A stretch of 64,000 bases of DNA from a virus. Taxonomy: Duplodnaviria; Heunggongvirae; Uroviricota; Caudoviricetes. The stretch is taken from IMG/VR virus record IMGVR_UViG_3300001688_000696; one strand, written 5' to 3'. Shown piece by piece: positions 25,240-25,985 of the stretch. A program made the position numbers and the translations under genes. Position 1 is the first letter of the stretch; each line of letters starts with the position of its first letter. The notes beneath the pieces are model-generated. The model had not been told where the DNA came from, made no database searches, and was given only the letters and a program-made list of their open reading frames with translations.

Positions 25240-25428
25240 ATGACCATGATTAAAGTTGTCAAACGGCAAGGGGCGGAGCTGATTGCCGCGTCGTGGGACT
25301 ACCAGCCGGACGAAATGCCGGATGATTTCCTGTACGGGTTGGTTGAAAGTCTCGGCTATCAGTGGGATGAGGTCAACGGCGCGTGGATTTATGTTGGTGA
25401 TGACAAAATTGCCCCGCAAGGAGCTTGA
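25240..25428 (+). CDS. small hypothetical protein (62 aa)
   Basis: RBS caggagg 7 nt upstream of ATG. Confidence 0.55.
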   Translation: MTMIKVVKRQGAELIAASWDYQPDEMPDDFLYGLVESLGYQWDEVNGAWIYVGDDKIAPQGA

Positions 25429-25453
25429 CGAATCGCTGTGTTTTTGTTATAAT
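25425..25453 (+). promoter_or_regulatory. sigma70 promoter TTGACG-17-TATAAT
   Basis: TTGACG at 25425-30 and TATAAT at 25448-53. Drives leader ORF 2. Confidence 0.6.
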
Positions 25454-25486
25454 TAATATACAATTTGTGAGCTTGGAGCGATAACG

Positions 25487-25546
25487 ATGTTCAACTTCTC
25501 TGCTTTTGAAGAACGTGAGGTCGAAGAAACCACAGCCGTGCGCTGA
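25487..25546 (+). CDS. leader peptide 2 (19 aa) MFNFSAFEEREVEETTAVR
   Basis: RBS ggagcg 7 nt upstream. 5 Glu codons (GAA x4, GAG x1) in 8 residues. Followed by a terminator, then the Glu tRNA array. Confidence 0.5.
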   Translation: MFNFSAFEEREVEETTAVR

Positions 25547-25596
25547 TTGGTTATTTGAGCGTTCTTCTTCGCAGAGAAACCCAATCGAACCAATAA

Positions 25597-25630
25597 GGCG
25601 CACGCTGGAAACAGGTGCGCCGTTTTTTTT
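25597..25630 (+). terminator. intrinsic terminator (candidate attenuator)
   Basis: ggcgcac gctggaaacag gtgcgcc + T8. Its 5' arm gcgcacgc is complementary to the leader 3' end gccgtgcgc (25535-25543). Confidence 0.75.
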
Positions 25631-25681
25631 AGGTGCAGACTATACCGAATGCGCCTTTTTTATTCTTTGAAAACCCAATAT

Positions 25682-25753
25682 CCCCCTGTCGTCTAGCGGT
25701 CAGGATACCCGGCTTTCAACCAGGAGAGATGGTTTCGACTACCATCAGGGGGA
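25682..25753 (+). tRNA. tRNA-Glu (UUC)
   Basis: Resembles E. coli tRNA-Glu. Acceptor CCCCCUG/CAGGGGG. D-arm GTCT-AGCGGTCA-GGAT. Anticodon loop CTTTCAA. T-loop TTCGACT. Confidence 0.65.
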
Positions 25754-25757
25754 CTGC

Positions 25758-25829
25758 CTCTCCATCGTCTAGTGGTCAGGACACGTCGCTCTCAACGACG
25801 AGGCAGCGGTTCAAATCCGCTTGGAGAGA
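25758..25829 (+). tRNA. tRNA-Glu (CUC)
   Basis: Acceptor CTCTCCA/TGGAGAG. Anticodon stem CGTCG/CGACG with loop CTCTCAA. T-loop TTCAAAT. Confidence 0.65.
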
Positions 25830-25834
25830 CTCTT

Positions 25835-25908
25835 GCTTCCGTAGGCGAATTGGTCAAGCCGCCTGGCCTTCAACCAGGAAAATGCGGATTCGAGTTCCGC
25901 CGGAAGCA
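25835..25908 (+). tRNA. tRNA with UUC anticodon and atypical C33
   Basis: Acceptor GCTTCCG/CGGAAGC. Perfect anticodon stem CCTGG/CCAGG with loop CCTTCAA. T-loop TTCGAGT. Discriminator A. Identity is uncertain. Confidence 0.5.
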
Positions 25909-25913
25909 CTCAA

Positions 25914-25985
25914 CTCCCCATCGTCTAGCGGTCAGGACAGGTGACTTTCAATCACCAGGCAGCGGTTCAAATCCGCTTGGGGAGA
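25914..25985 (+). tRNA. tRNA-Glu (UUC)
   Basis: Acceptor CTCCCCA/TGGGGAG. Anticodon stem GGTGA/TCACC with loop CTTTCAA. T-loop TTCAAAT. Confidence 0.65.

Follow-up and report, generated by a model that had tools for sequence, protein, structure and literature searches.

A probable leader-peptide attenuator ahead of a tRNA-Glu array on an uncultured viral element, and related tRNA cassettes on other viral contigs

The trp, his, leu, thr and ilv leaders are attenuated by the same class of mechanism. In general terms, the classical attenuators (trpL, hisL, pheL, leuL and the multivalent thrL and ilvL/ivbL) have a constitutive promoter, a short translated open reading frame (ORF) with a run of regulatory codons, and an RNA that can form a protector (segments 1 and 2), an anti-terminator (segments 2 and 3) or a terminator (segments 3 and 4), the stop codon lying at or near segment 2 and termination being the outcome when the leader is left untranslated. 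A counterpart of each of these traits is predicted ahead of four tRNA-Glu genes in the stretch analysed here, the 64,000 nucleotides (nt) of the Caudoviricetes record IMGVR_UViG_3300001688_000696 (hereafter the window, to which coordinates refer unless a contig is named), and we consider it highly probable, from sequence analysis and folding models, that this region is a ribosome-mediated (leader-peptide) transcription attenuator with a tRNA array as its cargo. The mechanism at pheL has been described (PMC3082878); unlike it and the other classical cases, the region would regulate tRNA genes instead of enzymes, its leader samples individual synonymous codons that match individual anticodons of the cargo where the classical ones repeat a single codon, it has no similarity to the Rfam leaders, and its carrier is not a bacterial chromosome but a large mobile element or phage, so far uncharacterised (viral contigs in the case of its counterparts). 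Two sister cassettes of the same element (one for Phe and Ser, the other for eight amino acids) have in common with the thr and ilv leaders that each leader covers several amino acids.

In their logic, the closest described systems would be those multivalent thr and ilv leaders, together with the attenuator of pheST (the pheM leader of E. coli), where the cargo is again a component of translation that corresponds to the codons of the leader, although there it is a synthetase protein and here it is tRNAs. T-box riboswitches likewise attenuate the transcription of translation-related genes depending on the state of a tRNA, by competition between a terminator and an anti-terminator; unlike the region under study, which has an ORF with a ribosome-binding site (RBS), they bind the uncharged tRNA directly, by means of a specifier codon and a T-box bulge, and need no translation. 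In lambda PR'-tR', too, an efficient terminator within about 200 nt of a strong promoter has to be overcome for downstream expression, but there the Q protein loads at the promoter, and no ORF, codon bias or leader/terminator complementarity is needed. Finally, the present arrays resemble those by which phages compensate for host tRNA loss or codon mismatch: they are large, lie on a phage-like element, have diverged scaffolds for the same anticodon and adjoin a T4 Rnl1-type RNA ligase (in T4, tRNA cut by a nuclease is repaired by enzymes of the Rnl1 class).

As far as we know, the control of bacterial tRNA genes is placed mainly at the promoter (growth rate, stringent response); phage tRNA arrays are generally treated as simply expressed, and we know of no demand-sensing control of them. 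A full-text literature search, with most subscription journals outside its scope, returned no leader-peptide attenuator upstream of tRNA genes, which are also not mentioned where bacterial attenuators are surveyed (PMC2965389). By this comparison, the tRNA-array cargo, the one-codon-per-tRNA design and the viral or mobile carriers would be what is new, being undescribed as far as this search reaches. A Phe-rich leader at E. coli pheU and pheV, considered as a precedent, was rejected, since in MG1655 the tRNA directly follows its promoter, with no leader ORF in between.

The tRNA-Glu cassette

The features of the cassette, which is the main subject of this text, are the following.

25401 to 25424, + strand: promoter-proximal upstream motif GAcAAAATTGCcCcgCAAgg, common to the Phe/Ser cassette in a pairwise alignment of both cassettes
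25425 to 25453, + strand: sigma-70-type promoter TTGACG-17-TATAAT with an extended -10 (TGt), 11/12 consensus matches
25475 to 25478, + strand: Shine-Dalgarno GGAG, 8 nt 5' of the leader ATG
25487 to 25546, + strand: leader ORF MFNFSAFEEREVEETTAVR, 19 codons plus TGA (ATG at 25487-89, stop at 25544-46)
25496 to 25516, + strand: segment 1, 5' strand of the protector hairpin, holding the first Glu codons (minimum-free-energy folds)
25508 to 25528, + strand: regulatory codon run GAA GAA cgt GAG gtc GAA GAA, five of seven consecutive codons for Glu
25521 to 25558, + strand: inner hairpin enclosed by the protector, holding segment 2
25532 to 25552, + strand: segment 2, anti-terminator 5' strand ACAGCCGUGCGCUGAUUGGUU, spanning the stop codon (duplex calculation, masked folds)
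25559 to 25578, + strand: segment 1', 3' strand of the protector hairpin (GCGUUCUUC...GCAGAG), pairing with 25496-25516 (minimum-free-energy folds)
25589 to 25607, + strand: segment 3, anti-terminator 3' strand ACCAAUAAGGCGCACGCUG, covering the entire 5' arm of the terminator
25597 to 25630, + strand: intrinsic terminator with a 10-bp stem, one bulged G, a GAAA tetraloop and G plus U8 (ViennaRNA, -17.4 kcal/mol)
25632 to 25661, + strand: second, weak hairpin (GGUGCA...UGCGCC, 12-nt loop) plus U6, aligning with the terminator of the Phe/Ser cassette
25682 to 25986, + strand: cargo of four tRNA-Glu genes with no encoded CCA (ARAGORN; Rfam, 52-65 bits across the set)
25682 to 25754, + strand: tRNA-Glu(UUC)
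25758 to 25830, + strand: tRNA-Glu(CUC)
25835 to 25909, + strand: tRNA-Glu(UUC), on a different scaffold
25914 to 25986, + strand: tRNA-Glu(UUC)

An earlier note, written by a model that saw only the letters of the window and its ORFs, had listed the promoter, a 19-residue ORF with an RBS, a strong terminator with T8 and four tRNAs with Glu anticodons (UUC, CUC, a UUC variant and UUC), and all of these are present, with the ATG lying one base earlier than the note implied (25488). Its count of five GAA or GAG among eight consecutive codons holds and can be tightened to five among seven, the Glu codons starting at 25508 (GAA), 25511 (GAA), 25517 (GAG), 25523 (GAA) and 25526 (GAA). The ratio of four GAA to one GAG in the leader stands against three tRNA-Glu(UUC) to one tRNA-Glu(CUC) in the cargo, so that both anticodons have their codon (2/2). 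The ORF begins 34 nt past the end of the promoter, and the GGAG before it is of the same type (GGAG/AGGA) as the RBS of the element's genes. The terminator hairpin, at 25597-25621, reads GGCGCAC(g)CUG-GAAA-CAGGUGCGCC (stem CUG/CAG plus GGCGCAC/GUGCGCC) and is followed by T8 at 25623-25630, a run whose length goes from 7 to 9 across strains; a simple terminator scanner missed this hairpin, probably due to the bulge. The weak hairpin at 25632-25661 may represent either a relic or a back-up terminator that is leaky.

The upstream motif, which may be an UP-like element or an operator, is absent from the other strong promoters in the window, among which the spacer TGTGTTTTT of the 25425-25453 promoter is common only to that of the Phe/Ser cassette; the promoter regions of both cassettes, which have this motif and spacer in common, are paralogous. 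The four tRNA-Glu scaffolds have pairwise identities of only 63-86%. In strain L008 (4704-4776), a single tRNA-Glu stands in place of the four, that is, the array is contracted while leader and terminator are intact.

The composition of the leader was compared with a control set of 1002 six-frame short ORFs (sORFs) of 15-45 codons, taken from 73 kb (the window plus 9 kb leftward). Five Glu in seven residues occur in the Glu leader and in no other member of this set, with a binomial probability of 2e-5 under the element's own amino-acid frequencies. At the RNA level, the leader folds better than its shuffles (z -3.5), and segments 2 and 3 form a helix of about 17 bp whose duplex free energy (-24.8 kcal/mol, vs -17.4 for the terminator) was equalled by none of 1000 dinucleotide shuffles of the leader (z -5.1). 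The complementarity between the last leader codons and the 5' arm of the terminator that had been noticed before (CGUGCGC with GCGCACG) is real, but it is only the core of this helix. Furthermore, the protector (25496-25516 with 25559-25578) and its inner hairpin lock segment 2 away when there is no ribosome on the RNA, a state in which the probability of the terminator is 1.00. In these models the Glu leader is laid out in the classical four parts (protector, anti-terminator 5' strand, shared strand and terminator 3' arm), and this arrangement replaces the simple two-state switch that had been suggested.

The effect of a ribosome was modelled by masking 28 nt, from -15 to +12 nt around the first base of the A site, at every codon, and refolding. 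With this local mask on the full leader, the terminator has a probability of 1.0 without a ribosome, with one at the stop and with one at codons 14-20, and falls to 0.28-0.44 only when the A site is at codons 9-12 (GAA CGT GAG GTC). In a second model the transcript was cut just 5' of the 3' arm of the terminator, which represents the moment of decision. Here a ribosome at any of codons 2-12 leaves 98-100% of the 5' arm sequestered, a share that goes down to 72% at codon 13, about 50% at codon 14 and 28-68% later. The permissive zone ends where the Glu run ends (codons 13-14). Together with the position of segment 2 across the stop codon, this agrees with the proposal that a ribosome at the stop masks that strand and one stalled at the Glu codons leaves it free, and the recurrence of the design and the co-variation between cassettes described below lend it further support.

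The mechanism that we propose would start with a strong constitutive promoter and a pioneer ribosome that translates the 19-codon leader behind the RNA polymerase. If Glu were decoded quickly, the ribosome would arrive at the UGA and cover 25532-25552, the terminator (25597-25621 plus U8) would form and transcription would stop before the tRNAs; if the leader were not translated, the protector would lock 25532-25552 away, also leading to termination. A stall in the GAA/GAG run, when usable Glu-tRNA is scarce, would leave 25532-25552 free to capture 25589-25607 as soon as the latter is made, and this pairing would sequester the 5' arm of the terminator and let the RNA polymerase read into the four tRNA-Glu genes. 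The new tRNA-Glu would then end the stall and close the switch, which would amount to a negative feedback matching tRNA supply to decoding demand. What the computation shows is the sequence elements, the competing structures with their significance, the boundary of the switch and the recurrence of codon-matched leaders; from there we infer that the leader is translated, that translation is coupled to transcription, that termination responds to stalling and that there is a physiological trigger, which we suspect to be the loss or shortage of host tRNA during infection or during the establishment of the mobile element.

Sister cassettes and their recurrence on viral contigs

The same architecture had been claimed, with the amino-acid bias swapped to match the cargo, for a locus at 21.2 kb, and it is found there with the following parts.

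21230 to 21258, + strand: promoter TTGACA-17-TATAAT with an extended -10, 12/12 consensus matches
21294 to 21380, + strand: leader ORF MITNIFFSFSFSGFSEKARAFCGLVDVA, nine of ten consecutive residues Phe or Ser
21346 to 21363, + strand: anti-terminator 5' strand, within the ORF and 3' of the Phe/Ser run, pairing with 21419-21436
21427 to 21461, + strand: terminator hairpin plus UUUUUAUUUU (folding)
21502 to 22062, + strand: cargo of two tRNA-Phe(GAA) and four tRNA-Ser (GGA, GCU, UGA, CGA) (ARAGORN, Rfam)

This leader, whose RBS is AGGUGG, is the only one of the 1002 sORFs with nine Phe or Ser in ten residues (binomial probability 2e-8). Its Ser codons TCA, TCG, TCC and TCC match the tRNA-Ser with UGA, CGA and GGA, so that GCU, the reader of AGY, is alone in having no codon. 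The anti-terminator has a free energy of -22.4 (vs -12.6 for the terminator), reached by 1 of 1000 shuffles (z -4.1), and in truncated transcripts the sequestered share of the 5' arm is 80-88% as long as the ribosome stands at codons 2-14, and 24% from codon 16 on. Since the Phe/Ser run comprises codons 6-15, the boundary of the switch coincides with its last codon. Variation among strains is seen at two places of this cassette. At 21449, a G-to-C change in five of nine strains closes a G.G mismatch in the terminator stem. Between the -10 box and the leader, a (TA)n tract at 21259-21268 varies in length (L002, L004, L006, L008), three strains having four more TA units and one strain one fewer, which could shift the transcription start or the strength of the promoter.

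A third cassette, about 6.4 kb to the left of the window, was reached by way of the window's first gene, whose protein is encoded identically on contigs (a 296-kb ENA contig among them) that are collinear with the left part of the window.

L200 2607 to 5290 (ENA ERZ27245383 k141_34440), about 5-7 kb left of the window start: third cassette, also in L199 and L201

Its promoter (L200 2607-2635, 12/12) is the only consensus promoter of a 3-kb region and is followed by an RBS, a 35-codon leader ORF MVNVWFGIIVNIANIAGNAADVDVSVSHEGKGVKK, a terminator at about 2806-2838 and 15 tRNAs (Asn, three Gly, Met, Asp, three Ala, two Ile, three Val and Trp). Of the first 24 residues of the leader, 23 fall within the eight amino acids of the cargo (p 2e-8), the maximum among the control sORFs being 17 (n=1002). 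The match goes down to the synonymous codons, there being a codon for each of the 14 anticodon classes (GGA/GGU/GGG, GCA/GCG/GCC, GUC-GUU/GUA/GUG, etc.), a full coverage that only 0.2% of random 35-codon gene windows attain.

Some observations on the tRNAs and leaders of the element can be added here. The 15-tRNA operon encloses two long unexplained spacers (L200 3413-3653 and 4379-4956) and a tRNA-like sequence (L200 3905-3971) with normal acceptor, D and T arms and a truncated anticodon loop, which ARAGORN reports only at a lowered threshold. The tRNAs of the element have no encoded CCA and begin with C1-G72, and those with the same anticodon (three Glu-UUC, two Phe-GAA at 21502-21654 and two Ile-GAU at L200 3654-4169) are 63-67% identical to each other; by this measure they are distinct scaffolds and not recent duplicates. 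In the sensing parts of the three leaders (25487-25528, 21294-21341 and L200 2669-2749), nearly all residues are among the 11 amino acids for which the element has tRNAs, as exemplified by the Glu leader, which opens with MFNFSAF. This shared residue set suggests cross-talk between the cassettes or their common descent.

Are such cassettes restricted to this element? A blind scan was applied in which a unit is defined by any tRNA that has no other tRNA in the 150 nt or more before it, and for each unit the preceding sORF with the strongest enrichment for the amino acids of the tRNAs that follow is retained. Among the first 202 units, the top matches were the three cassettes of the element and one on an unrelated IMG/VR contig, L039, with leader MTIRTNISTITAAAVAAVVGVVAAAEAGCAGEDTMPRGGFVD, a GAAA-loop terminator and 13 tRNAs (Val, Gly, Ala, Cys, Asp, Glu), all 12 of whose anticodons are represented in the leader. 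The scan was then extended to a sample of IMG/VR drawn with three tandem T-arm patterns and a tRNA-Glu pattern, comprising 379 loci and 1160 units. Fourteen of the 1160 units have p<1e-5, vs 2-4 after permuting the tRNA sets, and seven have p<1e-6, vs 0-2. In nearly all top matches a hairpin with a T-run lies between the sORF and the first tRNA, the stop codon being 60-90 nt before the tRNA. Three of these cassettes may serve as examples.

L231: leader MKTLFSSYLLSLSLLSQGT, tRNAs Ser (three), Leu (four), Phe (two) and Tyr
L380: leader MKTTTTYKTQYQPKGGKPQRK..., tRNAs G, K, P, Q, T, Y
L464: leader MKKIFIQWQNFTNTFEMY..., tRNAs E, F, M, N, Q, T, W

In the L231 leader, 13 positions are filled by 12 different codons, and the coverage of the anticodons by leader codons is usually complete in these cassettes (12/12, 10/10, 9/9, 7/7, 7/7, 5/5). 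Three cassettes each are found on L435 and L443, another one on L260, and a family of five contigs has MFAAMMNKQNKLQKLWSNWNLF... in common. Altogether, about a dozen of the 379 sampled loci are convincing, with at least 13 cassettes. With this recurrence on viral contigs, the third cassette of the element and the permutation and swap controls, the earlier contention that the resemblance between the Glu and Phe/Ser loci makes chance unlikely gains considerable ground.

The pairing of leader and terminator also recurs. Among 15 IMG/VR cassettes there are 9 in which the sORF, in its 3' part, matches the 5' arm of the terminator by complementarity better than shuffled sequences do (z -2.4 to -5.7), with the partner about 6-55 nt before the stop and the arm starting 25-36 nt after it; by eye, these complements are perfect, 8-10 bp long and different in sequence in each cassette. 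A swap control was performed with 16 cassettes, in which every leader was paired with every terminator arm: the own leader is the best binder of its arm in 11 of the 16 (rank sum 48 vs 136 expected, p<5e-5), and the Glu leader ranks first of 16 on its own arm. On this evidence, leader and terminator co-vary between independent cassettes, which stands in for covariation among orthologues. Leader-gated tRNA cassettes are probably widespread and likely a general strategy.

Besides their match to the cargo, the IMG/VR leaders show recurrent termini. A C-terminal '...DLTTL' appears in otherwise different leaders (two cassettes of L435, L358 and, partly, L380), and the starts MRTI (L435) and MKTL (L231, L260 and L443) are also seen; they could reflect a conserved RNA, a peptide-mediated pause or common ancestry. 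On L260, a 219-kb viral contig, a tmRNA gene (2255-2627) lies inside the leader-gated tRNA array. A search for cultured relatives of the L231 and L260 cassettes gave only generic tRNA similarity.

Objections, alternatives and the presumed signal

Several points weigh against attenuation by leader translation. The evidence for the Glu cassette is computational throughout. The equilibrium fold of the full-length leader keeps the terminator when everything 5' of the ribosome is masked (P 0.88-0.95 at the Glu codons), which means that the switch rests on the kinetic, co-transcriptional order of events. As this equilibrium result depends on the model (terminator at about 0.3 with the local mask and about 0.9 with the 5' side masked), it is the truncated-transcript model that is relied on for the switch; in textbook attenuators such as trp, full-length equilibrium folding is likewise not decisive and the co-transcriptional order is needed. 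The last two Glu codons (13 and 14) lie at the edge of the permissive zone, where a stalled ribosome already covers part of the anti-terminator strand, and the weak hairpin with U6 (25632-25661), being outside the anti-terminator, might still terminate. In addition, the anti-terminator of the third cassette (L200 2743-2757 with 2801-2815) does not reach significance when taken alone (z -1.6), and the eleven copies of the Glu cassette differ at few positions only, so there is no true covariation at the locus. Finally, stalling cannot separate a shortage of tRNA from a shortage of glutamate, for which tRNA synthesis is no remedy.

The strains offer what variation they have in the following form. 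The leaders on ten contigs with an identical upstream gene are almost identical, and the single-nucleotide polymorphisms (SNPs) among strains maintain or strengthen the pairings: the 25553 A-to-U change would add one pair to the Glu anti-terminator, and an SNP in the anti-terminator of the third cassette turns a G.U into a G-C pair.

Among the alternatives, the one that survives best, unlikely as we hold it to be, accepts that stalling is sensed and assigns it an output other than intrinsic termination, such as the access of Rho, the processing of the tRNA precursor by RNase, the stability of that precursor, or a leader RNA acting in trans. It would suit the equilibrium folds, which keep the terminator in most masked states, as well as the very stable folding of the leader, and a liberated attenuator RNA that acts in trans elsewhere is described in PMC6614838 (rnTrpL). 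Nonetheless, it does not account for the hairpin and U-run that stand between sORF and tRNAs in nearly all cassettes, nor for a complement that targets exactly the 5' arm of that hairpin, which is the signature of competition between a terminator and an anti-terminator.

A second alternative, to which we give somewhat less credit, sees the promoter-proximal terminator as a checkpoint overcome by a dedicated factor (a protein of the lambda Q or N kind, or a put-like RNA), the short ORF being incidental. There is a resemblance to lambda PR'-tR', with a strong promoter and a terminator about 170 nt downstream; at 26923-27085 the window has another consensus promoter followed by a terminator, this time with no ORF, and most proteins of the element, among which such a factor might be sought, have no recognisable function. 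No Pfam or PHROG match suggesting an anti-terminator protein was obtained among 40 ORFs (mostly ORFans), qut, nut and put sites in cis not having been searched. What a factor leaves unexplained is that the composition of the leader tracks the tRNA set in all three cassettes of the element and in many on IMG/VR contigs, and that each leader ORF bears the complement of its own terminator arm, with the boundary of the switch at the end of the codon run.

That the short ORFs are functional micro-proteins (small hydrophobic membrane peptides or toxins) which happen to lie upstream of tRNAs seems more improbable still: the Phe/Ser and multi-amino-acid leaders are hydrophobic, and the recurrent 'DLTTL' could mean a function of the peptide, but the Glu leader is acidic, no sequence beyond the short termini is conserved across cassettes, and the composition follows the cargo down to synonymous codons matching individual anticodons. 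Mere chance, by which an unremarkable sORF and terminator would lie in a tRNA leader, can be practically dismissed, for although short ORFs and hairpins are common and the Glu cassette taken alone gives p ~2e-5 before multiple testing, three cassettes of one element are each unique among about 1000 sORFs, the 1160 units exceed their permutations and the swap control is significant at p<5e-5.

Taking attenuation by leader translation as the preferred explanation, which signal would have been selected? Because the output remedies only a missing tRNA, we infer that the selected signal is a shortage of tRNA, which could arise when host tRNAs are cleaved or decay, or when the host's pool is mismatched. 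The T4 Rnl1-type RNA ligase encoded near the arrays and the same-anticodon scaffolds with 63-67% identity lend this circumstantial support. Going one step further, we put forward tentatively, and with rather more reserve than the attenuator itself, that phages and large mobile elements possess 'codon-sampler' attenuators, with one leader codon per encoded tRNA, in which the depletion of any one host tRNA would stall the pioneer ribosome and thereby induce the replacement tRNAs that correspond to it. An anticodon nuclease or another defence directed at tRNA could be the cause, as could host shut-off or the entry into a host whose tRNA pool differs, and the cassette would be an inducible and self-limiting device for counter-defence and host range, as well as a natural sensor of individual tRNA species.

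If true, this would establish a direct feedback from decoding speed to tRNA synthesis, adding a new class of cargo to a mechanism known for 50 years, and would explain how large phages can carry dozens of tRNAs without a constant cost. The design is modular, in that every tRNA has one codon, a leader covers as many as 14 anticodons and a genome carries several cassettes. It would also provide natural and portable sensors of the availability of individual tRNAs, tie tRNA arrays to tRNA-targeting immunity and improve annotation, since these leaders are now called hypothetical genes of 20-45 amino acids or missed.

The element and its neighbouring features

This uncultured element, whose contig extends over 296 kb or more, consists mostly of ORFans and uses consensus sigma-70 promoters; among its recognisable genes are those of DNA methyltransferases, an integrase-like fragment, a GGDEF protein, ADP-ribosyl enzymes and an RNA ligase. 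Relatives were sought in several ways. A megablast of the 20-30 kb region against phage and plasmid collections gave no match, nor did a 23-nt pattern of the tRNA-Glu T-arm in IMG/VR, by which no trace of the element was seen. As a source of orthologues, the flanking proteins yielded a single 99% match for 23164-23820 and, for a CoiA-like protein, matches of at most 46% in unrelated contexts, while a metagenome scan with the promoter pattern common to the Glu and Phe/Ser cassettes returned only generic AT-rich promoters. The 23-nt T-arm of the tRNA-Glu at 25758-25830 and 25914-25986 is identical to that of the chromosomal tRNA-Glu of many Atribacterota (L062-L079), and a scan of genome contigs with it found only single chromosomal tRNA-Glu genes of Atribacterota and no arrays. 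This is a weak hint at an Atribacterota host.

Regarding known RNA families, only tRNA reaches the gathering score of Rfam in the window, no family is matched by the Glu or the Phe/Ser leader even when E values up to 5 are admitted, and neither the window nor L200 has a match to the T-box riboswitch, whether by gathering score or by E value. The only sub-threshold matches to leaders nearby, Leu_leader and rimP, both fall on an unrelated terminator around 23000; the Leu_leader match (23002-23113, - strand, 28 bits) was rejected as a leader, the terminator in question being bidirectional.

The T4 Rnl1-type RNA ligase (PF09511, phrog_562) is encoded at L200 8361-9827 (- strand), about 3 kb from the 15-tRNA array, and near it, in L200 1-8000, there are an ADP-ribosylglycohydrolase, a dual-specificity phosphatase and an ADP-ribosyl exotoxin-like gene. 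By its gene content, this region is a possible neighbourhood of tRNA repair or counter-defence.

Adjoining the Glu cassette, positions 26923-27085 (+ strand) hold a 12/12 promoter, an RNA of about 105 nt without an ORF and a strong terminator. The RNA, which matches no Rfam family, adopts a closed multi-branch fold (z -6.2), and the folding makes it a candidate small RNA gene; the absence of an ORF rules it out as a further leader cassette. Another non-coding RNA may lie at 48550-48280 (- strand), where at least 250 nt of GC-rich and structured-looking sequence, to all appearances non-coding, come after a 12/12 promoter. Lastly, near-identical divergent promoter modules with the palindrome TTGACATATGTCAA occur at 2424-2467 and 3546-3589, each followed by a similar A-rich 5' untranslated region and an RBS, and the copy number of this region is not the same in the window and in L200, the window having about 1 kb extra.

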